Part shown: one piece after another, positions 3,100-50,352 of the stretch
How the letters are laid out: each line of letters begins with the position of its first letter
How positions within the stretch are numbered: the first letter of the stretch is position 1
Virus record (IMG/VR): IMGVR_UViG_3300017644_000127
Coordinates: 1-51,658 of that record
DNA from: a virus
Taxonomy: Duplodnaviria > Caudoviricetes
Direction: 5' to 3' (one strand)
Length of the DNA: 51,658 nt
Notes under the pieces: generated by a model
Databases searched by the model: none
Told to the model about the DNA's origin: nothing
Seen by the model: only the letters and a program-made list of their open reading frames with translations
Translations under genes and position numbers: made by a program

Positions 3100-3124
3100 A
3101 CCCCTTGCCCCTCATGCACTTTCG

Positions 3125-3325
3125 TCATTTCCAGCACCGCTGGGATTTGCCGTATCGATCCGTCGCGACCAGGTAGCGCGCGATCGGCTCTTCCTTCGCC
3201 GCCAGCGACACCGGATCATTCGGCTTCGGCGGACGCGTCCACCCCGCGCAGTTGGTCGCGGCAGTCGTCGAGCACCCCGCCAAGCTCAACGCAGATATCA
3301 ATGAGATCGGCACGATCCACTTCAT
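3125..3325 (-). CDS. o-spanin (Rz1-like lipoprotein)
   Basis: Lipobox LSLAG-C; overlaps the 3' end of the i-spanin in another frame. Confidence 0.75.
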   Translation of the reverse strand: MKWIVPISLISALSLAGCSTTAATNCAGWTRPPKPNDPVSLAAKEEPIARYLVATDRYGKSQRCWK

Positions 3326-3494
3326 GGTTAATGTCCTCGCGCTTCTGGATTGCGTCTAGGGAGGCTTGGAGAGCAGCCACCGCGGCTTCCTGGCGGCCTT
3401 GGTGATTGCCGAGCAGATAGACAGGTCCGGCGGCGACGAGGGCGCCGAGCAGCGCTCCTGCCCCGATCTTGAGCCAGTCGAAGAGGCCGAACAT
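3216..3494 (-). CDS. i-spanin (Rz-like)
   Basis: N-terminal TM (MFGLFDWLKIGAGALLGALVAAG), helical periplasmic part, C-terminal Cys pair; follows the endolysin. Confidence 0.75.
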   Translation of the reverse strand: MFGLFDWLKIGAGALLGALVAAGPVYLLGNHQGRQEAAVAALQASLDAIQKREDINHEVDRADLIDICVELGGVLDDCRDQLRGVDASAEAE

Positions 3495-4459
3495 CAGGCC
3501 AGCTCCTCGCGCATCGCCTTGTAGGACTTCGCGAGCCGCTGACCGATCAAGGAGATGATCACGAGCATCAGCACCACCGCGATCGCCACCGCGGCGACGG
3601 TTTTCCAATCGGCTGCGAGGAATGCCGTGCCAAGGCCACCGACGCCGAACACGCCGGTGACCTTCTGCCAGAGGCTGGTTTCAGTCTTGGCCTTCTGTTC
3701 GACGGCGACGGGCACAACCGGCTTGGGAACGGGCACCGGGATCGGCCTCACCTCCGTAAACGGGTTCTGCCCGGCCAGCGCCTTGTGCAGCGCCATGCGG
3801 GTATTCTGGCCAACGATGCCGTCGGTCGCGCCGGCCTCGGGATGTTCCCGCTGGAACCGCTTGATCTCCGCCTCGGTCGTGCCGTAGCCGAGCAGCACAA
3901 GCGCGGCCCGCCCATAATAGTCGAGCCGATCCTCGAAGCCGTTGAGCCCGCCATTCACGCGGCGGGTGATCATCTCGATGTTGTTGTCGTCGGCGTAGCG
4001 GTTGAGGCTCTTGCCGTCTGGGTTGCCGACCGCCCAATACCAAAGAAACCCGAGCCCCTCCCAAGGATCGGTGTTGATCAGCTCCGGATCCTGCTCGAAG
4101 TCCGGCGCTTCCGGATCGATGTTCTTCCGAGCCCAGGCAGTGAAGGCCCGATAGTTGGCCCTGCCGGTGACCTGCCCTGCCGTGCGCCCGCGATACTTCG
4201 AGCCGTCGCCCTTCCGCACGTTACCGAGATCCTTCCGGCCTTCATAGCGCTTCTGGGCAGGCGTCGGGCCCCACAGCTCGCGATCGTACCGAAACGACCC
4301 GCTCTCATGCAGCAGCTGGGCAAGGTAGTGCGCCAGGCGGTGCGGGTGATCGAGCCCAACACTGCGGCCGTGGGCGTTGAGCGCCACCAGCACGGAATTC
4401 AAATTGGCAGCATTCGGCTTGCCGCGAGCCATCGCCCGCAGCTGGTTGGCGGTGATCAT
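3494..4459 (-). CDS. Endolysin, GH19 chitinase-like, with PG-binding segment and C-terminal TM helices
   Basis: LAQLLHESG, DGSKYRGR..QVTGRANY, ITRRVNGGLNGFEDR; FQR...DGIVGQNT PG-binding motif. Confidence 0.9.
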   Translation of the reverse strand: MITANQLRAMARGKPNAANLNSVLVALNAHGRSVGLDHPHRLAHYLAQLLHESGSFRYDRELWGPTPAQKRYEGRKDLGNVRKGDGSKYRGRTAGQVTGRANYRAFTAWARKNIDPEAPDFEQDPELINTDPWEGLGFLWYWAVGNPDGKSLNRYADDNNIEMITRRVNGGLNGFEDRLDYYGRAALVLLGYGTTEAEIKRFQREHPEAGATDGIVGQNTRMALHKALAGQNPFTEVRPIPVPVPKPVVPVAVEQKAKTETSLWQKVTGVFGVGGLGTAFLAADWKTVAAVAIAVVLMLVIISLIGQRLAKSYKAMREELA

Positions 4460-4960: not shown

Positions 4961-7031
4961 AGCCCACCCTCCAAGTCCCGTCCTGAAATATGACTCAACT
5001 GCAAGTTTGGCAAGTGATCGCCGGATTGCAACCCTCATCATATTCTTGACAGCCGCATTTTTTGCGCTCGCGAACATTCGCTACAGCGGCCCGGTGATCC
5101 GTCCCGACGAGGTCGGGTATCTTGGCTACGCGGCCTTCCTTGCGGGCTACAGCGTGGATGCGGCCAGCAGCTATCACCTCGGGTACTCGATCTTCCTCGC
5201 GCCTCTGTTCCGGATTCTCCCTTCTACTGAGGCAATTTGGACCGGCATCACGGTGGTGAATGGTGCTTTCTTCGGAGGCGCCTTGGCGGTCTGCTATTAC
5301 ATTTCCAAGGAGTTCTTCTCCGACAAAGCCCCCGCCGAGCGAATCCTGGTCATCGGACTGTGCGCTCTTTACCCAGGCTGGGTCTCCATCAGCGGCTACG
5401 CGTTTTATCAGCCGCCTTTTGCGTTCTTCTTCGCCCTCTCGGCATACCTTCTTCTGAAGGGGCGCTACTCGAATGCTTGCCTCATCGGAGCGGTCGCGAG
5501 TAGCTCCTTTCTTTTCTGGATCCACGCCCTTGGAATCGTCTGCTGCGTCGTAACGGTTGCAATCATCGTCCTTCTGCGGCGCGGATTTATTACGACAGTC
5601 TCTGCAGTCGCGCTTTCCGCATTCGTTATCTGGATCTATCAGTTTGGGCTGGCGCCGGCGGTGGACGCAGCTATGACACCTGCAGGCGTTAAGCCCCTTA
5701 AGCACTATCCTTCCGTCGCGAGCGCCCTCGCCATTCTCTCTCCGTCGGGCGTCCTGGAGTTTGCAACACGCATGTTGGGGCAAGCCTCATACCTTCTGAT
5801 CGCAACTCTGGGGTTTGCAGTTCGGCCGCTTGTGATCGCCCTCTCTGCTGTCCCCTCTCTCCTTAGTGGGCAGATCAAGGAAAGAGACCCGATCAAATTG
5901 GCGAGCATCTTTGCGATCGGCAGCATCGTCGGCATGACCGTCTTCAGTGCCGCAATGTTCACCGTGGTGCAGGATGCCTCTCGGCAAGATCACTGGATGT
6001 ACGGGCGGTACAACGAGGGAGCGATCTTGCCCGTCTTGCTCATTGGCCTTTCGATTCCTCCAAAGAGGTCCCTTGCTGTCATTCCGTTGCTGATACCGAT
6101 CATGTTTGCAGTGCTAGTCAGCGCGCTCGCGCCTGACGCTGCTCGGCTCGCACCGATCAATTCGGCGGCATTCTGGCCGGCCGTAGCATTCCCCAACCTG
6201 TCTTTTTCCAGTCAGGTGACAATCGGAGCGGTGGCCTCAGGAGCGGTTGTCGCTCTCGCCTCGTGGAGCATCGGCGCCGTCGTACTCGCCGTCGCATTTC
6301 TCATATGCCTCCCGCGCCAGGTTGAATGGCACGATATGGCATCTCGCATCCAGTCTAAACCTCAGCTTGTGCAGTTGGTGCGCGATGTCGTCAGTCCGGG
6401 GAGTTGCGTCGCCCTCGATCCGCGGTCCGGCTTTTCGCGTTTGCGATTTTTGGACTTCTATCTTTTTGAATATCGGTTGCAGCGAGTGCATCCGTCGGAG
6501 TGGCGGCAGAAATGTGACGGGCCTTACCTTTCGGTCTCGGGAGATCCACGCGATGCTGATTGGGTGGGCTTCACAGACTGGAACGCCAAGGTCTTTGGTC
6601 GAGGCCGCGCCCCGACCGATGAATATTCCGAAATTGCCTTTGCTGATGCACGCCTTTGCGCCAGCGGCTGGTGCTACGCGCGAGATGCGGAGCTGCTGTT
6701 CCGGAGAAGCCAGAATGGCCAGCTCAAAAATGGTGTCCTTGCCTCAACCCGGTCAGCAGGATACCTGTTTTTTGGGCCATATATAAAAGTCGAAAAAGGT
6801 CACTATCGCCTGGAATTGACCGGTTCGGGCGGGGCCCCCTCCTCTCGATTGGAGATAGCTGCCGATGGAGGGAAGGACCTCATAGCGCAGTTCCCACTAA
6901 GCACTCTGGCTGACGAGAGAGCAGAGTTCTCCTTTGAGCTCCCCCGTGACGCTCTGGACCTTGAAGTCAGGTTATACACGCCTGCTGGGGCGGACATCGC
7001 AGTTTCTGGGTATGTTCTGACCAAAGATTGA
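4944..7031 (+). CDS. Polytopic GT-C-type membrane glycosyltransferase with periplasmic C-terminal domain (surface/LPS modification); start uncertain
   Basis: PDE acidic motif after TM1, more than 10 TM helices, YGRY motif, C-terminal FGPY beta-sandwich. Confidence 0.7.
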   Translation: MLVRDIAHPPSPVLKYDSTASLASDRRIATLIIFLTAAFFALANIRYSGPVIRPDEVGYLGYAAFLAGYSVDAASSYHLGYSIFLAPLFRILPSTEAIWTGITVVNGAFFGGALAVCYYISKEFFSDKAPAERILVIGLCALYPGWVSISGYAFYQPPFAFFFALSAYLLLKGRYSNACLIGAVASSSFLFWIHALGIVCCVVTVAIIVLLRRGFITTVSAVALSAFVIWIYQFGLAPAVDAAMTPAGVKPLKHYPSVASALAILSPSGVLEFATRMLGQASYLLIATLGFAVRPLVIALSAVPSLLSGQIKERDPIKLASIFAIGSIVGMTVFSAAMFTVVQDASRQDHWMYGRYNEGAILPVLLIGLSIPPKRSLAVIPLLIPIMFAVLVSALAPDAARLAPINSAAFWPAVAFPNLSFSSQVTIGAVASGAVVALASWSIGAVVLAVAFLICLPRQVEWHDMASRIQSKPQLVQLVRDVVSPGSCVALDPRSGFSRLRFLDFYLFEYRLQRVHPSEWRQKCDGPYLSVSGDPRDADWVGFTDWNAKVFGRGRAPTDEYSEIAFADARLCASGWCYARDAELLFRRSQNGQLKNGVLASTRSAGYLFFGPYIKVEKGHYRLELTGSGGAPSSRLEIAADGGKDLIAQFPLSTLADERAEFSFELPRDALDLEVRLYTPAGADIAVSGYVLTKD

Positions 7032-30937: not shown

Positions 30938-31320
30938 GCCCGCCTCCTCTGCCTGTGCTCAACCGCTACCGGAGGCCTGCCGCGACCGGGATAGATCATC
31001 GACGGGCCGACGTCACCGAACACCCTCACCTTCTCCTGCTCGGCCTCCTGTTCGCGTCTGGCGAGAAAGGCGGTCACCTCATCCGCCAGCGCATCCATTG
31101 CCGGCGCCTGCTCGATCTGCTCGGAGCGGATGGACGGGTTCAGAACGCGCGTCAGGCATTCTTTCGCCGCGGCAATTGCCTGGATTGCAGTGTCGCATTC
31201 GACCGGCTGGCCATCCTTCCTAACAAAGCGCCAGTTCTCGCCGGCGAATAGCCGGAACAGTGGCCGGTACCGCGAGCCGTAGGGCATCTGCGAATATTCG
31301 GGCAGGAATTCCTTGGTCAT
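30934..31320 (-). CDS. Hypothetical protein
   Basis: ATG 31320 coupled to the dnaB stop codon. Confidence 0.65.
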   Translation of the reverse strand: MTKEFLPEYSQMPYGSRYRPLFRLFAGENWRFVRKDGQPVECDTAIQAIAAAKECLTRVLNPSIRSEQIEQAPAMDALADEVTAFLARREQEAEQEKVRVFGDVGPSMIYPGRGRPPVAVEHRQRRRA

Positions 31321-32768
31321 CAAAGCCCCTCGTCGAACAGTTCGGCCGGCGCTTCCTCGCGCATCGACACGTATCGGGTGAATGTCGCTTCGAACCGGAT
31401 GCGCCGGCGGATGGATGGATCTCCGAAGCGCACCTTCAGTGCGCCAAGTTCGGCGTGATCCTCTTCCCACCTCTCACGGGCGAACCGGCCCTCGATCTCC
31501 CGCTCTTCCTTTTCATCGGCAGCGGTCGCCAGTTGGGTCGCACGGTATTTCCAGGCCCGGTAGAGGTAGAACATGCCGTCATAGTCCTCGCGGGCCATCT
31601 CGCCCCCGTAAATGTCGGCATCGATCGGCCGCGGGTTCTTGCGCTTCGCGCCCGCACTGGATCGCTGATTGAGGTTCAACCAGACGGCGCCGAATTCCGC
31701 GGCGATGTCCTTGCACACACCATTAACCTCGGCAGCAATGCGGCCTTCATGGTCACGCTCGTTCCTCGGTTTCACCTTGCGGACGTGGTCGAGGATGATC
31801 AGTGGTACCTTTTCGAACCGAGGGGCGAAGGTGGTCAGGAACCGGCGGGCATAGCCCGCGATCTGGGCCGAACCGTCCCGCCGGCCGGAACACTTCTTGT
31901 ACGCCATCGGCAGGGAGCGCAGATCGGCAATCGCCTCCCATTTCCGCTCACGCTCTTTGGTTTGGAGCCGGTCCTCGTCTTTGAGCCTAGCGTGCTCAAT
32001 GCCGAGCTGCTGAGACACCATCTGCAGAAGGCACTGGTCCCAGAGCTGATCATACGAGAGAAGAAGGGTAGGATGACCGTGACGGGCCGCATGGCTCATG
32101 ATCTGCAGAACCTTGCTCGTCTTGCCCTCTCCCGAGCCCGACAGCATGCCGTAGAGGTTCCCCGCCTCAAGGTCCTCGCCCATCACCTCGCGAAGCTGAG
32201 GGAGCGGCAGCGGGACGGTGGGGCGGCTTCTCTTGCGCTCCCCGCCCATCATGCGATCGACTTCGGTTTGAGCCGTCACCATGCCGTCGGCATCGTCGCC
32301 CGCATCGAGCGAGAACAGCAGGTCCTGCGCCTTGCCTATCAGCTCTTGGCCGGTTTCCTCGGGCTGTGCGTTGTAGCCGATCCATGAGATGTCTTGGCCG
32401 ATCGAGATTAACCGGCGCCGCAACGCCACGTCGCGGATGGCTTGGGCTAGTCCGTCGGCTCCCGTCACCGTCACGGCTTCGGCAACAAGCTGCGCCAGGT
32501 ATTGCGAGATCGTGAGATCACCGACCTTGGCATCAGCCGGCAAGAAACCGATGACGGTCGGCGGTGTCGCCTTCTTGCCCTGGCGGATTAGGTCCGAAAT
32601 GATCCCGAATATCTTGCCATGCAACGGCTCACCGAAGTCTTCGGCACTGATCTTCCCATCGACAGCGACGAAGGCGTTCACATTGAGCATGACCGCCCCT
32701 AAAAGGGCGGCCTCTGCCTCGACGGCATCAGGGAGCGCCGGCCGGAAGTCGTGGGAGAAAGCGTTCAT
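31320..32768 (-). CDS. DnaB-like replicative helicase
   Basis: N-terminal EAEAALLGAVM DnaB domain; Walker A GSGEGKT; IILDHV, LNQ, KVRFG. Confidence 0.88.
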   Translation of the reverse strand: MNAFSHDFRPALPDAVEAEAALLGAVMLNVNAFVAVDGKISAEDFGEPLHGKIFGIISDLIRQGKKATPPTVIGFLPADAKVGDLTISQYLAQLVAEAVTVTGADGLAQAIRDVALRRRLISIGQDISWIGYNAQPEETGQELIGKAQDLLFSLDAGDDADGMVTAQTEVDRMMGGERKRSRPTVPLPLPQLREVMGEDLEAGNLYGMLSGSGEGKTSKVLQIMSHAARHGHPTLLLSYDQLWDQCLLQMVSQQLGIEHARLKDEDRLQTKERERKWEAIADLRSLPMAYKKCSGRRDGSAQIAGYARRFLTTFAPRFEKVPLIILDHVRKVKPRNERDHEGRIAAEVNGVCKDIAAEFGAVWLNLNQRSSAGAKRKNPRPIDADIYGGEMAREDYDGMFYLYRAWKYRATQLATAADEKEEREIEGRFARERWEEDHAELGALKVRFGDPSIRRRIRFEATFTRYVSMREEAPAELFDEGL

Positions 32769-37449: not shown

Positions 37450-37761
37450 TCATTCTGGCACCCTAAGAACTACGATTGAACGGGCGCGGCCCGGCATGTG
37501 GGTGATGTATCCCCGCTCGGCCAGCGCGTTGATGATGCGATTGACACCCGACTTTGATCCGAGACCAATGCCGTCTGCGATCTCGCTAAAGGTGGGCGCA
37601 ACTACTCGTTTCTTCTGGTAGTCGATTATGAAGTCGAGGACTTGCCGCTGCCGAACAGTGAGACCGCCGACGGGCTTCTGATCCAGCTGGCGCCTTACCT
37701 CGTGGGCCAGCTTAGGATTGGTTCGGATCAACTCGGAGGCGGCATGGGCGAGTGGGGTCAT
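37450..37761 (-). CDS. LexA DNA-binding-domain-only protein
   Basis: LTVRQRQVLDFI...PTFSEIADGIGLGSKSGVNRIINALAERGYI...RARSI; no peptidase domain. Confidence 0.85.
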   Translation of the reverse strand: MTPLAHAASELIRTNPKLAHEVRRQLDQKPVGGLTVRQRQVLDFIIDYQKKRVVAPTFSEIADGIGLGSKSGVNRIINALAERGYITHMPGRARSIVVLRVPE

Positions 37762-39257
37762 GCCGCCTCCACCTTTTCCGCCATCAGCTTTTTGCAAGGT
37801 CCGCAATGCTCACGACCGGTACCGCCGCATTTCTCGAGATCGTCGAGATGCTGACAGAACGGCCGGATGCGACGGATCATGTCCGCCTTGGAAAGGGTTG
37901 CCCCGGAGGCGGGAGGAGGAGCGACCTCCGGGGCTGCAGTCGCCTGCCGTGCTGGGGACGCAGCGGGGTTGGCAGGCATCTGGGAATTTCGGGGAGCGGG
38001 AGAGACCACCGCCTCTCCATCCGTCGATCGCTCCCCCTCAGGTTGGCGCGTAACCTGCGCCTGGTATTTTTCTGCCGCTGTTCCCGATGGTCCCTTGCGG
38101 GCTCCGTCCATCGATGGGGCTTCGGGCTTGCTGATCGGATTGGCCCCGGATGGTGGCGTTCCGACCGTCTGCCGCTCGCGGCTCTCCCCACTCAAATTCG
38201 TTGCGCCGACTTTCACGGCGCTGCTGGCGCGCTCCGCGCGGCGATCTACATCATCGCCTCCCGTGCCAGTGGCTGGATTGCTCTCTGTGAAGATGACACC
38301 GCTCACCCGCAGGTAGGCGATGAATGCTTCGCGGTCTTCGTCGGTCGCTTCGGTCCAGAGCGCGACCAGTTCGTCGAAGATGTTGCGGAGATTGGTGGGG
38401 AGGTCGGCCGAAGCCGCCTCCCCTTCGTGGCGGCCCTCACGATCCGCAGGCGTCCCGGTTCCTGTCCCGGCAAGGGAGGCTTCGGCCTGCGGACCTGCCT
38501 CCGGGGATGGCTCATCGCTTATCGAGGGCCTCGGTGCATTCTTGCGGCTGGCATTGATGCCGGCCGTCTTCATGGTGGCGACGGTGCCGTGTTTGGATCG
38601 GAACTTGCGGCCACGGCTATCACTGGCTACATCGCCAGTGATCCGCTCCACGCGGGGGTCATCGAACACCGCTTCCCTGCCCGGACGGAACTTGCCTCCG
38701 GCGTCGCGGGCTTCTCCTCGGTAGAACGCTCGGATGTCAGCCTTTACACGCGCGACGGTCGTATGGTGCACTTTGCACCGACGAGCGATCTCCCGATCCG
38801 ACCACGCGCCCCACTCTTCGTCTTCAAGGAGGCGCATGATCGCCCGGCGACGATCGGCATCGGTTCGCTGCAAGCCATGCGCATGGTTGACGCCGACGCT
38901 GTAGAGGACGGCGTCGCGCAGACCGCCTTGATGGATTTCGCAGCGGATCTCTGTGCGGCCAATGCCTCGCGCGGCGTAAACGCGGTGGAACCCATCAGCG
39001 AGCCAATACTTCGATCCATCGTGGAAGACGGTCACTGGCGGGAAGATGTCTCCCCGCTCCATGGCTTCCTGGTAGTCCTTCCAGACGTCGGTCTTGATGT
39101 ACTTGCGCGGCTGGGCCTGAGTGTCCGCAGCTATCAGGGCAAGAGGTACATCCTCGATTACGTGTTCGTTGAGCGTGGCCCGCGACTGCGTACCACCGTC
39201 GATATGGATGGTGTCGAGGGCGAGGCCGTGTTCGTCGGTTGGCTGAGTGCGGATCAT
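37758..39257 (-). CDS. ParB/Srx-like N-terminal domain + HTH protein with long disordered C-terminus
   Basis: FPPVTV, LADGFHRV, N.AHGL.R...DRRRA, WSDREIARRCKV. Confidence 0.8.
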   Translation of the reverse strand: MIRTQPTDEHGLALDTIHIDGGTQSRATLNEHVIEDVPLALIAADTQAQPRKYIKTDVWKDYQEAMERGDIFPPVTVFHDGSKYWLADGFHRVYAARGIGRTEIRCEIHQGGLRDAVLYSVGVNHAHGLQRTDADRRRAIMRLLEDEEWGAWSDREIARRCKVHHTTVARVKADIRAFYRGEARDAGGKFRPGREAVFDDPRVERITGDVASDSRGRKFRSKHGTVATMKTAGINASRKNAPRPSISDEPSPEAGPQAEASLAGTGTGTPADREGRHEGEAASADLPTNLRNIFDELVALWTEATDEDREAFIAYLRVSGVIFTESNPATGTGGDDVDRRAERASSAVKVGATNLSGESRERQTVGTPPSGANPISKPEAPSMDGARKGPSGTAAEKYQAQVTRQPEGERSTDGEAVVSPAPRNSQMPANPAASPARQATAAPEVAPPPASGATLSKADMIRRIRPFCQHLDDLEKCGGTGREHCGPCKKLMAEKVEAA

Positions 39258-39496
39258 GCCGCGTTCTCCACCACCGGCCGCGCAACGTTAGCGGGCCAGT
39301 CCGCATCTTCGGGCCAGTTTGCTGAAAACCAGGCAATGGCCGCATTGAAGCGACCGACCGTGATGTCTGCCCCATTTCGGATGGCGGTGAGCTTCTTGCT
39401 GTCGCCAAACACCCGATGGCTGAGCGTCACTTCCTTGACCGAAGTGGCTGCGATGAATGCGTCGGCGAGGCCGAGAAGGTGCGCGATTTCTGTCAT
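39254..39496 (-). CDS. Cro-like repressor
   Basis: Small HTH-type protein divergent from the CI-like gene, first gene of the leftward early operon. Confidence 0.75.
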   Translation of the reverse strand: MTEIAHLLGLADAFIAATSVKEVTLSHRVFGDSKKLTAIRNGADITVGRFNAAIAWFSANWPEDADWPANVARPVVENAA

Positions 39497-39509
39497 GGCG
39501 CTACCTTGT

Positions 39510-39582
39510 CGGTTATTTTACCGCTGCTGTCAACGGTTTTCTTACCGCTCGCTGCAGCTCGCCGTTGGCGGTAATTTCACCG
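39510..39582. promoter_or_regulatory. Three operators CGGT-N6-ACCG in the cro/cI intergenic region
   Basis: CGGTTATTTTACCG 39510-39523, CGGTTTTCTTACCG 39534-39547, CGGTAATTTCACCG 39569-39582; minus-strand TTGACA at 39528-39533. Confidence 0.85.
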
Positions 39583-39583
39583 C

Positions 39584-40003
39584 ATGATCGACCTGGCCCA
39601 AATCATTGAGAAAATAGAGGCTCGCATAGCTGAGCTTGGGATGACCGCGGCCGAAGTTTCCGCCAAGGCGACGGACTCCAAAGACACAATCCGGAATTGG
39701 AAAAGGGCGGTCGAGGCCGATCGGCGGAACGGGACGAATAAGGCGAGCGCAACCACGATCAAACTAAACCAGGTTGAGGCCGTGCTTGGGATCGAACTCG
39801 CCCGGAATGGAAGTGGCGCCACGCCGGAGGCTCAGTTGCGGTCTGCTCTACTCGCCTTCGGTGTCGATGCAGAAGACCTGGGCCGGGCAGTTTCTTCTGT
39901 CAAAGTGTTCGTCGACGACCACGACGAGCAATCATCACAAGGCCTTCATCGTGATCAATCCTCACCATCCAATGGCCGCCGTGAAGTAGAGCCATCAAGG
40001 TAG
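39584..40003 (+). CDS. CI-like XRE repressor lacking an S24 peptidase domain
   Basis: IEARIAELGMTAAEVS.KA...DTIRNWKR HTH; 139 aa; ATG directly after the third operator, no SD. Confidence 0.75.
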   Translation: MIDLAQIIEKIEARIAELGMTAAEVSAKATDSKDTIRNWKRAVEADRRNGTNKASATTIKLNQVEAVLGIELARNGSGATPEAQLRSALLAFGVDAEDLGRAVSSVKVFVDDHDEQSSQGLHRDQSSPSNGRREVEPSR

Positions 40004-40130
40004 AGATCTCGGCAGCTTTCCTCTTTACGACAATCCTTGGATCTAGCGGGGCGGCGGCACCAGCCGCTTCTCGCAGCTCAGCGACTATCTCCTCGTTCCG
40101 CGTTTCGTAACGCGGCCTATATTCGATCAT
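39900..40130 (-). CDS. Small protein under a LexA box, candidate antirepressor
   Basis: GGGGAAG RBS, ATG 40130; SOS box about 80 nt upstream; converges on and overlaps the cI 3' end. Confidence 0.55.
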   Translation of the reverse strand: MIEYRPRYETRNEEIVAELREAAGAAAPLDPRIVVKRKAAEISTLMALLHGGHWMVRIDHDEGLVMIARRGRRRTL

Positions 40131-40211
40131 GACTTCCCCGCCCACTAACCAGCCGCCCGCGGCGAAACGAACTCAGTAAACTGCCTGCTCAAAGTACCAC
40201 CCCTGCGATGA

Positions 40212-40226
40212 GAACATAATAGGAAC
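40212..40226 (-). promoter_or_regulatory. Alphaproteobacterial LexA (SOS) box
   Basis: GAAC-ATAATAG-GAAC (GTTC-N7-GTTC on minus), downstream of minus-strand TTGACA at 40243-40248. Confidence 0.75.
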
Positions 40227-40325
40227 ATCTACCTAGCCGACGTGTCAACCGCCGGCTGTCACAGCGCGTTTCGAGTTGTGATTTTTCCTCCTCCTCGAGG
40301 GCCGTCCGCAGGCCCTAACGAATTG

Positions 40326-40805
40326 CTACATACCGTTAGGATCGGTGTCTACAATTGAAGTGTCCAAAATGGACAGTTCGCGCATTGCTTGCCGAACCAC
40401 ACGCTCAATTGCCTCAAAGAAAGCGTCCGTTTCAGGCGTCGATGACCGGAAAGAATAGACTATCCGGCGCCCTACACGTCTCTGGTTGATGTTTCCGCGT
40501 CGCTGCATCGCGGACAGGTGCCTGTGGACAGAAGTCCTCGGCAGCGTCGTTACTGCCGAGATCTGGGTCGCATCCATCGGACGTCCCTCGTACTGCCCCA
40601 CGCGGATCGCAAAAGAGACCAAGGTTTCCTCTGTGGGCACGCTACGAGATGTCGCGACCGAATGAAGGTCCAGCATCAATCGCAGAAGGATGCATCGGAC
40701 TTGCTTTTGATGATGGGACGCGTCTGGCAATTTGGGGCAGCACCTCTGAACGCCCCCTCGCCGATGGTTCCACTTTTGTCGATATTGTGGAACCATTTCT
40801 AGCAC
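40326..40805 (-). CDS. Winged-helix HTH protein (start uncertain)
   Basis: PMDATQISAVTTLPRTSVHRHLSAM..RG.I.QRRVGRRIVY. Confidence 0.7.
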   Translation of the reverse strand: MLEMVPQYRQKWNHRRGGVQRCCPKLPDASHHQKQVRCILLRLMLDLHSVATSRSVPTEETLVSFAIRVGQYEGRPMDATQISAVTTLPRTSVHRHLSAMQRRGNINQRRVGRRIVYSFRSSTPETDAFFEAIERVVRQAMRELSILDTSIVDTDPNGM

Positions 40806-40831
40806 TTAATGTTTCAGCGATAAGTCGGGGC

Positions 40832-41104
40832 ATGTCCAAGCAACCGCCCCACAGTTTCCACCTCCGATTGCCGGAAGACGTCCTGTCGTTCCTGATGGAT
40901 GAGAAAGGCAGCAATAGCCTGAACGGGGAGATCATCGATCGGCTACGCGGGACGATGGCGCAGCGTGACGCGGACAGGCTCGGGGCCGCGCTTCGGCCGA
41001 TCCTCGATCCTTTGGACGACGCCGATCGCGAGGAATTGGTGGCGCTCACGATCAGGGCCTTGCAGATCCTGGCGAAGGGGAGAACGCGCCCACGTCGCAA
41101 GTAG
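40832..41104 (+). CDS. Arc-like ribbon-helix-helix protein
   Basis: FHLRLPEDV...SLNGEIIDRL. Confidence 0.8.
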   Translation: MSKQPPHSFHLRLPEDVLSFLMDEKGSNSLNGEIIDRLRGTMAQRDADRLGAALRPILDPLDDADREELVALTIRALQILAKGRTRPRRK

Positions 41105-41107
41105 GCC

Positions 41108-41440
41108 TTAGCCTTTCGCCTTCTGATACTCGGCGGGGTCTATTCGCCGAACCTCTGACGCAGCTCCAAATGTGCCCGGAATGAACGGTTCTCTCCGCGT
41201 CGGATATCTTCCGCCGTGCTCGTTCGGGCAAAGGGTACGCTGAAGTTTCAGCATATGCGGGAAGAGGGATTTTGTCCGATCCTTGGTAAATTTCGTTCTC
41301 TGCCGGCCAAGCGTGCGTGCCATCCAGTACGCCTGGCGCTCGCTTTTCAGCGCATCGACATCAACGCCTTTGCGGCGGAGCCAGTCGCGCAGGGGATAGA
41401 GCGACTCCGGCCACTCATACGGTTGGAATGCGTGTTTCAT
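41108..41440 (-). CDS. Basic hypothetical protein downstream of the structured non-coding region
   Basis: ATG 41440 (alternative 41467); Arg/Lys-rich. Confidence 0.55.
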   Translation of the reverse strand: MKHAFQPYEWPESLYPLRDWLRRKGVDVDALKSERQAYWMARTLGRQRTKFTKDRTKSLFPHMLKLQRTLCPNEHGGRYPTRREPFIPGTFGAASEVRRIDPAEYQKAKG

Positions 41441-42015
41441 ACCTGATTTCCAGTCTCTTGTGTTCATCTTCCATAGGCTTCGAAAAGGAGCGTCCTTCAC
41501 ACACTGAAGGCCGTCCTTTCCTGCTGCGCCTTGTCCGCAGCCAAGCATCCGTGAACCTGATTTCCACCCAGCCTGGTGTTTGATTTGGCAGTACCCGTCT
41601 GCCCTTCACCGGCATCCTCCCGCCTGTCCAGCGGTGCGAACGGAACGCGCCGATACGAACTCAAGTGTGAAAAGTTGGCTGGGGTTATTCCTCGCGCGGC
41701 AAGCGTTGATCGAGGACGGGCGCTCCAAGCCCCGTCAGATTCGTCCGGTTCGTGAGGGAGCCGGCAACCTGGGGGAGATTCATGCACCGGATGATCGGCG
41801 CGGCGGGACAATCGCCCGTGAAGACCACCGCCTCGAGCGCTCCAACCGCAATCACTTGGCGGGAACCGCCGAGCAGACCCAAGATGTTGCGATTTTCTGC
41901 GCCGCGACGCGCCTTAATGCTTGTTTCCGAAGGCTCTACTTGATACATAAGCCCTGACTTATCTCAACGTCTCTTTGTGGGCGTCGCGCCCCGGTCGGAT
42001 CATCCCGCCGGGGCT
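41441..42015 (-). ncRNA. Candidate large structured non-coding RNA / leader (family unknown)
   Basis: Eight or more stems, a long-range pairing, two short direct repeats, no convincing ORF. Confidence 0.45.
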
Positions 42016-42023
42016 TTCTTTTT
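41987..42023 (+). terminator. Intrinsic terminator (may end a small antisense RNA)
   Basis: GCCCCGG...CCGGGGC followed by TTTCTTTTT. Confidence 0.8.
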
Positions 42024-42057
42024 ATGCGCGCCGCTCAGCCGGCGCAATACATCTTGT

Positions 42058-42107
42058 CGGTTTTTTTACCGCCATATGTTGACGGCGGTAATTTTACCGT
42101 TTAAATT
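42058..42107 (+). promoter_or_regulatory. Rightward early promoter with two CGGT-N6-ACCG operators
   Basis: TTGACG (42079)-N17-TAAATT (42102); operators at 42058-42071 and 42086-42099. Confidence 0.85.
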
Positions 42108-42162
42108 ACTCCCATCAGCCACGAAGAAGCCCTTGGCCGATCTGGCGGAGATGGAGACGACA

Positions 42163-42411
42163 ATGCTGTTCCTGAAAGACATCTATGGGGCCAAGCAGGC
42201 GCGCGGTGACGCCGACGCCGAGCAATTCCGCGCCCTGGCCATCTACGAGTTTGGCGCCGGCCTGAACGCCACGGCGATCGGTGCCGCGCACATCCTGCGG
42301 TCCGTCACCAAGAACCGGCGCGCATGGGTGTCGGACGTCCAGCACGCCCGCCGTGTTGCTGCCCTGGCTGACATCGACGCCGCGCTCTCCCCTGTAGCAG
42401 AGGCTGCGTGA
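42163..42411 (+). CDS. Hypothetical early protein
   Basis: GGAGA RBS; first ORF after the promoter. Confidence 0.65.
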   Translation: MLFLKDIYGAKQARGDADAEQFRALAIYEFGAGLNATAIGAAHILRSVTKNRRAWVSDVQHARRVAALADIDAALSPVAEAA

Positions 42412-44376: not shown

Positions 44377-45606
44377 ATGAACGCACTCGTCGCGACCGAA
44401 GACCGCCCTAAGCGGGCCCTACTTGAAGTGGTCGACCCGGTTCCTGTTCTCGATACGAGCCGCTTCGAGCACATGCAGCGCATCGCCAACGTGATGGCGC
44501 AAAGCACGCTGATTCCGGAATCTCTCTACAAGGAGAAAGATAAAGAGCTCCCGCTGTCGCAAATCATTTCGAACTGCTTCCTGGTTGTGAACCAGGCGGT
44601 CAGATGGGGGCTTGACCCGTTCGCTGTAGCGCAAAGCGTGGCAGTGGTTCGGGGCAAGCTCTGCTATGAAGGCAAGCTCGTCGCCGCGGTGCTCGACGCC
44701 AAGTTAGGCGTAAGGCTCCATCATCACTTCACGGGCGACCCGGCGAAGCCAGAGTACCGGATATACATCTCCGATCAGCCTTGGACAGAGGAAGCCATTG
44801 CTGCCGTCCGTCCTGGCATGTCGTTGCCTAGTGCGCGGGTTGTGGACGGCTCGGTCGCCGAATGGTCGACCGGCGACAAAAGCCCGTGGAGCGCGGCGAA
44901 GAACTATCGCCGCATGCTGATGTATCGCGGCACCCGAGATTGGGCTCGGTTCTATGAGCCAGCGATCATGCTGGGCGTCTACACCCCGGATGAGATGCTT
45001 GACCTTGCCGAAAACGCCAAGGCACTCCGGGCTCGTGACTTCAACGAGCGGCCATCGCTTGCCGAGCGGCTGACTGCTGCCCGCGCTGAACCTCACGGCG
45101 AGCGCCAGCCGGCGGAAGGCTTCGCGCTGGAAAATGTGGCTGCCGAGAATGCGGCGGTCGCTGGCGAGGCTGCAATCGAACAAGAACCATCATCGGCCGT
45201 CTCCACCGATGGTGCAGGCGGCGAGGACACCGCCGACGGGGGCGCTGGCGATGCTGGCGCCCCAACAGATACCGCCGAGGCGGATGGGGCCGGTGATGAA
45301 GCGGCTGATGGTCAGTCCGCGGCGCCGGCCCCGGGTGAACTGTCGGATGAGCAGAATAAGAAGCTGTTCGTCCTCGAAGAATGCGCTGATGCCATGTTCG
45401 CGGCTGCAACGCACATGAATGCATCCGAGCGCGCCGACAGACTTGATAAGGTCCGCATGGCCTGGCTTGCGGAACTGCCCAAAGACAAAGAGTTCGTCCA
45501 GAAGGCCTACGAGACCTGCGCCCGCCTGGTCGAAAACCCCGCCGGCCGCGATCAGGTCATGCCCTATCTGAAGGTGCAGGCTCGGAAGTGGTTGGGGGTG
45601 GCGTGA
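44377..45606 (+). CDS. RecT-like single-strand annealing protein with acidic C-terminal extension
   Basis: NCFLVVNQAVRWGLDPFAVAQ...GKLCYEGKLV; MLMYRG.R.WAR...LGVYTPDE; follows recE. Confidence 0.75.
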   Translation: MNALVATEDRPKRALLEVVDPVPVLDTSRFEHMQRIANVMAQSTLIPESLYKEKDKELPLSQIISNCFLVVNQAVRWGLDPFAVAQSVAVVRGKLCYEGKLVAAVLDAKLGVRLHHHFTGDPAKPEYRIYISDQPWTEEAIAAVRPGMSLPSARVVDGSVAEWSTGDKSPWSAAKNYRRMLMYRGTRDWARFYEPAIMLGVYTPDEMLDLAENAKALRARDFNERPSLAERLTAARAEPHGERQPAEGFALENVAAENAAVAGEAAIEQEPSSAVSTDGAGGEDTADGGAGDAGAPTDTAEADGAGDEAADGQSAAPAPGELSDEQNKKLFVLEECADAMFAAATHMNASERADRLDKVRMAWLAELPKDKEFVQKAYETCARLVENPAGRDQVMPYLKVQARKWLGVA

Positions 45607-46502
45607 TGGGCGAGATCACCGCAATCAGCTGGTGCGATGCGACCTTTAACCCCTGGATTGGCTGCACCAAGGTCTCCCCGGCGTGCGACGGCTGCTATGC
45701 CGAGGCGCTGATGGATAAGCGCTATGGCCGCGTCGAATGGGGCGCGCCGGGCAAAGGCAACGGCACTCGGGTTCGGACATCGGCGAGCAACTGGCGCCAG
45801 CCGATCCGCTGGAACAAGAAGGCACGGGAGGCGGGCACACGCCCCTTCGTCTTCTGCTCGTCGCTCGCCGACGTCTTCGATAATCAGGTGCCGACCGAAT
45901 GGCGGCGAGACCTGTTCGAGTTGATCATCAAGACCCCGCATCTCGTCTGGCTACTGTTGACGAAGCGGCCGCAGAACATCGTGAAGCTGTTCGACGAGAT
46001 CAGCCACACACGAGATGAGTGGCCTCGCAATGCCGCGATTGGCACCACGATCGAGGACCAGAAGCGCGCCGATGTGAACGAGCCCGCTCTGGTGAACGCC
46101 GCGGCCGAACTCAATCCCGCCTTCACCTTCGTCTCATGCGAGCCGCTGCTCGAAGGGTTCAGGCTTCGCCATCTGTATCCGACGGAAGAGCAGCCGCGGA
46201 TCGATTGGGTCATCACCGGCGGCGAGACGGACCAGGGCGGCCACAAGGCGCGGCCGACGCATCCCGACTGGTACCGTAGCCTGCGCGACCAGTGCGCGGC
46301 AGCGGGCGTCGCCTATCACCACAAGCAGAATGGCGTGTGGGTATCGGATGACGGTTCTGGCGGAATCGACCGCATGAACCAATTCCTCGGCAGGCCCGAG
46401 GCATTCACCGAGACTGACGAGCCTGTGTTCCGGATCGGGAAGGCTCTGTCCGGCCGCCTCCTCGATGGCATCGAGCACAACGCTCGGCCGGAGGTGGCGT
46501 GA
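45606..46502 (+). CDS. DUF5131 (gp37/gp68-like three-Cys) protein
   Basis: WCDATFNPWIGCTKVSPACDGCYA, LLTKRP, SCEPLL, WVITGGE. Confidence 0.9.
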   Translation: MGEITAISWCDATFNPWIGCTKVSPACDGCYAEALMDKRYGRVEWGAPGKGNGTRVRTSASNWRQPIRWNKKAREAGTRPFVFCSSLADVFDNQVPTEWRRDLFELIIKTPHLVWLLLTKRPQNIVKLFDEISHTRDEWPRNAAIGTTIEDQKRADVNEPALVNAAAELNPAFTFVSCEPLLEGFRLRHLYPTEEQPRIDWVITGGETDQGGHKARPTHPDWYRSLRDQCAAAGVAYHHKQNGVWVSDDGSGGIDRMNQFLGRPEAFTETDEPVFRIGKALSGRLLDGIEHNARPEVA

Positions 46503-49711: not shown

Positions 49712-49958
49712 GCTGACAGAGGCGCAGAAGCGCGCGTTGGCGGATGTGCACAACCATCGCCCCGGATATTTCACCGCGTGGGACCTCGGCACATCGACAT
49801 GCGAAGCGTTACGTAAAAAGGGCCTAGTAGAGCATCGCGGCGGGGACCGACCATTCACCGTTGGCTGGCGAAACAACGAATGCGTCTATATCACCGAAGC
49901 AGGCCGCGCCGCCGCCCGCCGCGCCCTCTCCGATGCCAAGGAGCAGGCAGATGGCTAA
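49704..49958 (+). CDS. Small wHTH-like protein (paralog 2)
   Basis: MGKLTEAQKRAL...LRKKGLVE...ITEAGRAA. Confidence 0.7.
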   Translation: MGKLTEAQKRALADVHNHRPGYFTAWDLGTSTCEALRKKGLVEHRGGDRPFTVGWRNNECVYITEAGRAAARRALSDAKEQADG

Positions 49959-50352
49959 GCGCGTCCAGCTTTCCCGAAAGAAGGGCTGGCGCATGCCAGA
50001 GAACACCGTGAAGGTGTCGAGGCCAGGGAAGTGGGGAAATCCATTTCCTGTCGATCACGAAGGCACAGCGATGCATTGCCTGTCGCTTGGGTTGGATGGA
50101 AACGACCGACTCGATAGGGCGACCGCAGCAATGGACCTGTTTCGAGCATGGGTCTGCGGCGGGAAGGTCAATGAATTGGTGGCTGGCTTCTTGCCTCGTT
50201 TCGGCAAAGCGCCCCTTCTCCGGCATATCCAACGGGATCTTCGCGGCAAGAATCTCGCCTGCTGGTGCGCCCTGGATCAGCCTTGTCATGCAGACGTGCT
50301 GCTCGAACTTGCGAACCGCCCCGCCGACGATGCCAAGGAGCAAGCGGGATGA
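49951..50352 (+). CDS. DUF4326 protein
   Basis: RKKGWRMPENTVKVSRPGKWGNPF...LRGKNLACWC...CHADVL. Confidence 0.88.
   Translation: MAKRVQLSRKKGWRMPENTVKVSRPGKWGNPFPVDHEGTAMHCLSLGLDGNDRLDRATAAMDLFRAWVCGGKVNELVAGFLPRFGKAPLLRHIQRDLRGKNLACWCALDQPCHADVLLELANRPADDAKEQAG

Follow-up and report, generated by a model that had tools for sequence, protein, structure and literature searches.

What occupies the right end of a prophage's putative immunity region when the DNA there holds no conserved gene for a protein? The question is raised by positions 41441–42050 of a tailed-phage sequence of 51,658 nt (Caudoviricetes; IMG/VR record IMGVR_UViG_3300017644_000127, positions 1 to 51,658), a prophage of 61.7% G+C which, at its full length, is called the window here. 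An earlier note, made from the letters alone, had described in this stretch a large structured non-coding region with a candidate antisense RNA and had proposed an RNA-based replication or control system. The structured non-coding RNA region is borne out by the homologs, in which the structure covaries and no coding frame is conserved. Indeed, comparison of relatives confirmed that 41470–42023 (~550 nt) is without a conserved coding frame, and the structured RNA matches no Rfam 15 family. Judging from the sequences, 41470–42023, at the right-hand limit of the immunity region, rather probably gives rise to two conserved RNAs, namely, a long folded RNA and a short RNA antisense to its 5' part.

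Family and covarying fold of the element

The element is conserved in 69 distinct prophage or phage loci, counted as 69 distinct cores from viral contigs and named genome records, with Brucella phage BiPBO1 among them; all counts across loci, here and below, come from related sequences. Named records of non-pathogenic bacteria with the element are Phyllobacterium trifolii CECT 7015 (L062), Chelativorans multitrophicus DSM 9103 (L081), Pseudohoeflea coraliihabitans (L112) and Rhizobium albus NBRC 110149 (L060). A search with a 20-letter motif retrieved 74 viral contigs, the motif used for finding relatives being carried by the hairpin at 41853–41885. A covariance model built on a 172-position core scores above 100 bits in 56 of these 74 contigs (148 bits in the window and 130 bits in BiPBO1). 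The core model matches 3 of 150 other genomes of the same family and none of 147 genomes from other families of the order; weaker full-length matches are found in records from other Rhizobiales families. With blastn, 11 of 400 other family genomes matched both the core and the terminator hairpin. The phage collection yielded nothing at E 1e-5, and relaxing the limit to E 1 brought in BiPBO1 alone, through a match of 30 bases. A pattern scan of genome contigs listed matches that were mostly chance ones in high-G+C genomes, and the true ones were selected later by profile and model. Distant members of the family (L093, L099, L101, L152 and L159) differ on the 3' side and are uninformative on promoters; downstream of one of them (L159, ~6860–6900) lies what appears to be the 3' part of a tRNA gene, with T-arm and acceptor end. 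In BiPBO1 (L234), the element is found between the terminator after gp64 and its own hairpin and T-tract, under the annotated genes gp63 and gp62, with the cI-like gp68 and the divergent gp69 upstream and exonuclease VIII downstream.

Scanned against Rfam 15 at the gathering score, the whole window gives no match. At E up to 10, positions 41000–42400 give three matches, all at chance level, and twelve homologous loci scanned at E up to 1 give a single, unrelated one. GOLLD, ROOL and OLE-like homology likewise found no match in these scans, these families being, as we take it, present in Rfam 15; the same is presumably true of the C4 family, a condition on which the negative result for C4 depends.

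The evidence for structure comes from an alignment of 22 window-like homologs. RNAalifold finds 86 pairs on the plus strand, 50 of them compensatory (–99.6 kcal), and 86 pairs on the minus strand, 55 of them compensatory (–108.8 kcal). Cells are paired at 94.5%, compared with 80.6% in shuffles, and none of 500 shuffles reaches any of four measures. Furthermore, slid controls give 15–23 compensatory pairs against 50 in the real alignment. Covariation in homologs, which the earlier note had named as a check on its proposal, is thus evident (50/86 pairs, 0/500 shuffles), and it supports 17 helices. Another check that it had named, folding compared with shuffled controls, turned out negative: single sequences fold no better than shuffles (plus strand, z = –1.47; minus strand, z = –1.25), which weighs against a folded RNA. 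Structural support therefore comes from covariation, not stability. A column-pair covariation scan for further tertiary pairs was too permissive to yield any.

The body of the predicted long RNA spans ~540 nt (41470–42015), with its 5' end near the right base of the terminator hairpin described below; it and its helices are assigned to the minus strand on grounds given in the next section. Most of the stems proposed from the single sequence are real. The left-end hairpin at 41484–41519 folds in all 22 homologs, with inner stems that differ. Covariation backs a further left-end hairpin at 41523–41541 (4/5 pairs compensatory, plus-strand A-C in 19 cells being minus-strand G-U), a hairpin at 41587–41602 (4/5), the long-range helix CCCAGCC/GGCTGGG of 41568–41574 with 41678–41684 (5/7, one of its pairs occurring as UA 8, AU 6, GC 5 and CG 3), and the hairpins at 41717–41733 (1/4) and 41745–41764 (5/6). 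For two other stems the place was right but not the pairing: a hairpin exists where CACCG/CGGTG had been proposed, but covariation backs CCGC/GCGG at 41620–41634 (3/4), and in place of CTTGGCGG/CCGCCGAG it backs CUUGG/CCAAG enclosing CGGG/UCCG at 41853–41885, the most conserved hairpin of all. The fold further comprises a long-range helix of 41551–41558 with 41737–41744 (5/8), which closes the left domain and on the minus strand is a clean 6-bp helix with G-U intermediates, a two-tiered hairpin at 41689–41716 (4/4 and 4/4), a hairpin at 41803–41828, and a helix of 41904–41909 with 41982–41987 (6/6), which encloses a variable stretch holding the internal promoter.

In addition, two loops of the structure pair with each other. 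The loop of an internal hairpin on the minus strand (41787–41798) pairs with the loop of the terminator hairpin, plus-strand GGAUGAUC (41789–41796) with plus-strand GAUCAUCC (41998–42005), ~200 nt apart. At this contact 98.3% of cells are paired and 4/8 pairs are compensatory, with 0/500 shuffles doing as well. Among 57 loci the variant pairs, several of which are independent, include GGUGAU/AUCACC, GGUGAA/UUCACC and GGACGA/UCGUCC, and the pair 41791–42003 is A-T in 37 and G-C in 13 of 56 sequences. Such loop–loop pairing is compatible with contact inside one molecule or between molecules; the loop of the predicted short RNA is identical in sequence to that of the internal hairpin.

Candidate promoters, terminator and probable strand of the long RNA

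A leftward promoter-like site lies on the minus strand at 42019–42047, with TTGCGC (42047–42042) as –35, a 17-nt spacer and TAAAAA (42024–42019) as –10, at 10 bp from the operator copy 42058–42073. The coordinates proposed for it were right, and its position is conserved: across 61 loci the motif consists of an A/T-rich stretch, TTGAC(a/g), N17, yAAAAG, AAAA and a hairpin, with the TTG at a fixed position in 47/61 loci and within one base in 55/61. In BiPBO1, a 10-bp palindrome overlaps the leftward –35. The internal rightward site, TTGTTT-N17-TACATA on the plus strand (41921–41949), had also been placed correctly, and here too the motif is conserved in position: TT[GC]N3-N17-TAN4 ends 24–26 nt before the hairpin in 44/62 loci, and its TT and TA are invariant in 22/22 aligned sequences. 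The terminator claimed at 41987–42023 is found, conserved, at 41988–42023 on the plus strand, where a G+C-rich hairpin (41988–42014, with a bulge and the loop AUCAUC) is directly followed by TTTCTTTTT (T-tract 42015–42023), as in an intrinsic terminator. The hairpin and T-run pattern derived from the alignment recurs in 52/69 loci, and looser versions in 59–62; the stem covaries (CGG/CCG, AGG/CCT, AGC/GCT), and a simple terminator scan missed it. The minus-strand equivalent of this hairpin would be the first hairpin of the long RNA.

Promoter motif and terminator together predict a short plus-strand RNA at 41956–42023, ~68 nt long here and 55–60 nt in most homologs, which would be antisense to the first 50–57 nt of the long RNA. 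Antisense targets of the 29 nt that precede the hairpin were also sought, within the 1.2 kb downstream in 53 loci; the mean was –21.9 kcal, versus –21.8 kcal for shuffles, and no place within that 1.2 kb was preferred.

With moderate confidence, we place the long RNA in the leftward direction, the short antisense RNA lying over its 5' end. Several features of the sequences point to the minus strand. In minimum free energy (MFE) folds of 64 loci, GNRA tetraloops number 36/153 on the minus and 6/186 on the plus strand, with ~5 expected on each, although these counts rest on related sequences and on MFE folds. Of the 36 minus-strand GNRA loops, 12 are the kissing loop and 24 are found elsewhere, on several variable hairpins and with differing GNRA sequences. 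Internal pairs of the plus-strand structure are A-C in 38 cells and G-U in 35, and a single invariant pair supplies 21 of these 35. Helix 41904/41987, read on the plus strand in 56 sequences, has A-C 27 versus G-U 13, and the terminator stem on that strand G-U 6 versus A-C 0. Unpaired bases on the minus strand follow the order A > G > U > C. Moreover, 25 sequences that form an independent subgroup, their left domain being of another kind, have a consensus fold of –33.0 kcal on the minus strand versus –21.1 kcal on the plus strand, and the minus-only helices of this subgroup contain 45 G-U cells.

The most serious competitor turns the long RNA around. It would run rightward from ~41480 to the terminator 41988–42023, have its 3' end in common with the short RNA and be a lysogeny-side product placed where lambda has rexAB; on this reading, nothing but an antisense transcript would come from the leftward TTGAC motif, unless the motif has another purpose. 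A rightward long RNA was in fact our first model, for which an excess of G-U on the plus strand was one of the reasons, and this argument was withdrawn because the excess is due to four invariant pairs, which supply 79 of the 120 G-U cells. In its favour, a canonical, conserved terminator is present on the plus strand, and the RNA would point the same way as the CI-like repressor, which is found upstream of the element on the plus strand in 43/69 loci. Besides the relatedness of the sequences behind the GNRA counts, other points weigh against a leftward RNA, and some of them favour the plus strand directly. If the four invariant pairs are counted, plus-strand G-U totals 120 versus A-C 57; helix 41745–41764 has U-G 6 versus C-A 2; and RNAalifold cannot separate the strands, as the energies and compensatory pairs given above are –99.6 kcal/50 for the plus and –108.8 kcal/55 for the minus strand. 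A clear terminator for a leftward RNA was not found, the left hairpin being followed by at least four U in ~5/22 homologs. The main doubt about the leftward promoter concerns its –10, which is weak: yAAAAG agrees with a TATAAT-like sequence at 3–4 of 6 positions, has no usual final T, and belongs to a site that the promoter scan did not list. Since yAAAAG is the complement of the terminator T-tract, its conservation could be owed to the terminator alone. RNA libraries contribute one unstranded contig for the element, and such libraries can hold DNA: in a soil metatranscriptome, a contig of 258 nt covers 41683–41925 at 100% identity, and the contig from a second run covers 41300–41450 only. The letters of the first contig after 41925 are, we presume, the first-mate post-insert adaptor and would indicate minus-strand RNA if the library was dUTP-stranded, which is a hint only.

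A rightward long RNA nevertheless appears rather unlikely to us. Neither a promoter nor a –35 was found conserved at the left end. In at least five loci (L171, L199, L222, L230 and L234), plus-strand hairpin and T-tract terminators end 6–45 nt left of the conserved block; abutting the left end, they leave no room for a promoter, and they shield the element from repressor-side transcription. The GNRA loops, the variable G-U and A-C cells, the composition of the unpaired bases and the better folding of the independent subgroup all favour the minus strand, and the short RNA alone accounts for the terminator. A leftward long RNA is therefore the reading that we prefer, as a matter of likelihood, in what follows.

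Replication, coding and the genes around the element

The earlier note had suggested that the RNA might be a replication primer or origin in a phage lacking an obvious initiator. Such a ColE1-type pre-primer or origin activator for phage replication, with the short antisense RNA holding it in check, would have the RNAII/RNAI geometry predicted here, that is, an antisense over the 5' end of a folded RNA of ~550 nt and long-range refolding. In addition, the region left of the element is below the window mean G+C of 0.617, with the three codon-position values mostly at 0.49–0.58. The phage is not, however, short of protein replication genes: a DnaB-like helicase is encoded at 31320–32768 and an SNF2-type helicase lies with it in the other early operon of the window phage, and DnaA-like and DnaB-like genes appear in the accessible part of the BiPBO1 paper (PMC4729917). 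Neither an Rfam match to RNAI nor any other was found, and no conserved origin-like sequence was seen beyond the left end. We consider the pre-primer improbable; compared with DNA priming, a role early in lytic growth or in immunity seems more likely.

That the stretch codes for protein is less credible still, whether the product be that of the 87-aa minus-strand ORF (open reading frame) 41685–41948, that of the 125-aa plus-strand ORF 41580–41957, or a hok/sok-like type I toxin peptide. The 87-aa ORF of the window does have a codon-like GC pattern (0.73–0.78 / 0.5 / 0.68), ORFs of at least 50 aa overlap the core in 43/69 loci, and in BiPBO1 two tiny ORFs are annotated there. However, the ORFs overlapping the core make up three clusters that differ in frame and lie on both strands, their GC3 and GC2 being nearly the same, and stop-free stretches of at least 80 aa are present on the minus strand in 24/67 loci and on the plus strand in 29/67. 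In the alignment of 67 sequences, column entropy by codon position of the 87-aa ORF is 0.99/0.99/1.08, without three-base periodicity, and 607 indel runs are not divisible by 3 versus 19 that are. None of the start columns across homologs yields a peptide of conserved length or sequence, and no hydrophobic, membrane-helix-like peptide was seen among those printed. A rough gene filter, the output of which was not tallied, left the element free of coding-like ORFs in most of the 69 loci, and Pfam and PHROGs gave no match in it. Overall, none of the overlapping ORFs carries a coding signal conserved across the 67 sequences, the point on which the earlier note had seen its proposal as vulnerable. 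The BiPBO1 annotated hypothetical proteins gp63 (52 aa, 3106–3264) and gp62 (44 aa, 3442–3576) sit within the RNA element and are probably not genes. Just as improbable as a coding function is a stretch of DNA-level signals only (the two promoters, the terminator and the operators, possibly together with a boundary at which mosaic modules recombine) with no functional folded RNA, since the position of the element at a module boundary with variable neighbouring genes and the non-significant MFE z-scores are set against 50/86 compensatory pairs, with 15–23 in slid controls and 0/500 shuffles, and against the covarying loop–loop pairing 200 nt apart.

The surroundings of the element are those of a phage switch. 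Left of ~39300, the minus strand carries tail, head and packaging genes, the DnaB-like helicase, an SNF2/methylase helicase and a ParB-like gene; right of 42150, the plus strand carries an early operon with exonuclease VIII and RecT. An operator-like 16-nt inverted repeat, CGGTwwTTTTACCGC, is present in five copies (39510, 39534, 39569, 42058 and 42086), and its core word TTACCGCC occurs 5 times versus 1.06 expected. The copies form two clusters (39505–39584 and 42053–42101), 2.5 kb apart; the repeat search placed those of the second at 42058–42073 and 42086–42101 on the plus strand. Because five operator copies lie around it in two clusters, as in lambda, we take 39505–42101 to be the immunity region, with the clusters as its bounds and 41441–42050 at its right end. 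The promoter scan lists, as a good match, a rightward early promoter TTGACG-N17-TAAATT at 42079–42107 on the plus strand. The first operator cluster runs up to the start codon of the gene at 39584–40003, whose product, a 139-aa helix-turn-helix (HTH) protein, is likely the phage repressor. Inverted repeats between the RNA and this gene are not colinear and were judged to be chance.

Between the CI-like repressor and the RNA, loci carry up to five small genes, or none, which vary and can lie on either strand (e.g. L234, 1455–3079), and this interval is an accessory-gene hot spot comparable to the rex position of lambda. In the window, ORFs overlap on both strands at 40326–41104. There, the plus-strand ORF is coding-like only from ~40832, as a 90-aa Arc-like ribbon-helix-helix protein (Pfam Arc, E 0.021) with homologs near the RNA in 3/68 other loci, and the minus-strand ORF 40326–40805 has an IclR-type HTH. 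Next to the element, and downstream of the long RNA in this phage, lies the minus-strand gene of a basic 110-aa protein (41108–41440), with a codon-like GC pattern and no family match. The suggestion that this protein is the partner of the RNA did not hold up, as a full-length homolog is found in 1/68 other loci and an 18-residue fragment in a second. An exact repeat of 12 nt, ACCTGATTTCCA, is found at the start of this gene (41441–41452) and inside the RNA (41555–41566), as had been noticed, but it was not seen in the printed homologs; it may be a trace of the insertion of the basic-protein gene. The other proposed direct repeat, GCGCTCCAA, belongs to a 21-nt match at 76% and looks like chance. 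Elsewhere, a long plus-strand ORF (611 aa, 37752–39587), probably a spurious product of high G+C, overlaps nearly all of the ParB-like minus-strand gene 37758–39257; DUF5131 and DUF4326 proteins are encoded in the early operon (45588–46502 and 49861–50352); and a scan for tRNA and tmRNA found none. By rough gene calls in the 69 loci, the genes around the RNA vary and the RNA is constant; indeed, it is more conserved than any neighbouring protein.

Proposed role and comparison with known systems

We infer both transcripts, their ends and the strand of the long RNA from the signals described above, and propose the following model. A long, non-coding, folded RNA of ~540 nt would be transcribed leftward from 42047–42019, back to back with the rightward early promoter 42079–42107 and beside the operator copies, and its promoter would be under repressor control. 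Its first element would be the hairpin 42014–41988, the loop of which would pair with that of the internal hairpin ~200 nt further on. A short RNA of 55–70 nt, transcribed rightward from 41921–41949, would end at the same hairpin and T-tract and be fully complementary to the first 50–57 nt of the long RNA. As it bears the loop sequence of the internal hairpin, the short RNA would compete for the contact with the first-hairpin loop. The duplex with the short RNA would open helix 41904–41909/41982–41987, and loss of the contact together with opening of the helix would switch or inactivate the fold of the long RNA. Since the RNA is constant while the neighbouring genes vary, we expect the long RNA to have its target in the host or in some part of the phage encoded at another place.

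A bolder conjecture, which we put forward only tentatively, is that the element represents a hitherto undescribed class of large ornate phage RNAs, in which a counter-transcript switches the tertiary fold by mimicking one of the RNA's own internal loops. The covarying loop variants, which include AUCAUC, CAUCAC, AUCGUC and UUCACC, would then be specificity classes; the short RNA of a resident prophage might disable the long RNA of a related incoming phage, and the long RNA might be an RNA-only or RNA–protein early lytic effector. If this were true, immunity would have a second layer, made of RNA, in addition to the repressor.

To our knowledge, bacterial and phage RNAs of more than 500 nt with many covarying helices include few well-supported ones, each of which opened new biology. 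The place of the present RNA in the genetic switch of widespread temperate phages of Rhizobiales is fixed, and the RNA appears to have its own antisense regulator. Literature searches found no description of it; the accessible part of the BiPBO1 paper (PMC4729917) makes no mention of an RNA, and a search by terms in the main text of PMC10690425, which catalogues candidate structured RNAs of viral contigs in bulk, found nothing relevant, although its supplements may list the motif without description. The competition between the antisense loop and the internal loop is a testable prediction, and the element is directly studiable, being carried by an isolated, inducible phage and by culturable, non-pathogenic hosts.

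In lambda, two operator clusters flank the repressor and accessory genes, and exonuclease and recombination genes are found in the operon beyond the second cluster. The window is alike in having the repressor region between two operator clusters and exonuclease and RecT beyond the second; whereas lambda has rexAB and a terminator at the place of the RNA, the RNA gene and its candidate promoter, divergent from PL, are the window's own. The neighbouring genes are of phage type (an Arc-like protein, HTH proteins, exonuclease VIII, RecT and a ParB-like nuclease), and scans of them found no RepA, RepB or RepC family of repABC systems.

ColE1 has a folded RNAII of ~550 nt and a short RNAI, made from a convergent promoter over the 5' end of RNAII, which exerts control through loop–loop contact and refolding. 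The element resembles this pair in its long folded RNA, the predicted 5' antisense, the terminator near the presumed start of the long RNA and the loop–loop contact, and the RNAII/RNAI-like geometry pointed out in the earlier note is still the best reading of the layout. Membership of ColE1 RNAI/RNAII or of the repABC counter-transcribed RNA (ctRNA), on the other hand, does not stand, as there is no Rfam match. Unlike ColE1, the element has one target hairpin rather than three, lies in a prophage immunity region with protein replication genes present and no evident origin, and would have an antisense loop that mimics an internal loop of its target.

Short RNAs of immunity regions that base-pair with phage transcripts include P22 sar, P1/P7 c4 and the P4 CI RNA. 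The predicted short RNA shares with them its phage origin, its immunity-region location and its presumed action by base pairing. Their targets, however, are mRNA leaders of anti-repressor or replication genes, and here the target would be a long non-coding folded RNA; moreover, the element has no Rfam match in the window or in the 12 loci, and no complementary site was found within 1.2 kb downstream. The type I toxin–antitoxin system hok/sok likewise consists of a long folded RNA with a short antisense at its 5' part and resides on mobile elements. The element is similar in its long covarying folded RNA, its predicted short 5' antisense and its location on a mobile element, and differs from hok/sok in that neither a small ORF kept across homologs nor a hydrophobic peptide turned up.

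Finally, GOLLD and ROOL are large ornate phage-associated RNAs (PMC12286853, as described in its accessible part). As far as that part of the source goes, the present RNA differs from them in having no Rfam match, in its Rhizobiales hosts, in its fixed place in the immunity region and in its apparent antisense partner. Within the same scope, it resembles them in its size of more than 500 nt, its many covarying helices, its conserved unpaired bases and its association with prophages, and its loop–loop contacts could in principle be intermolecular.

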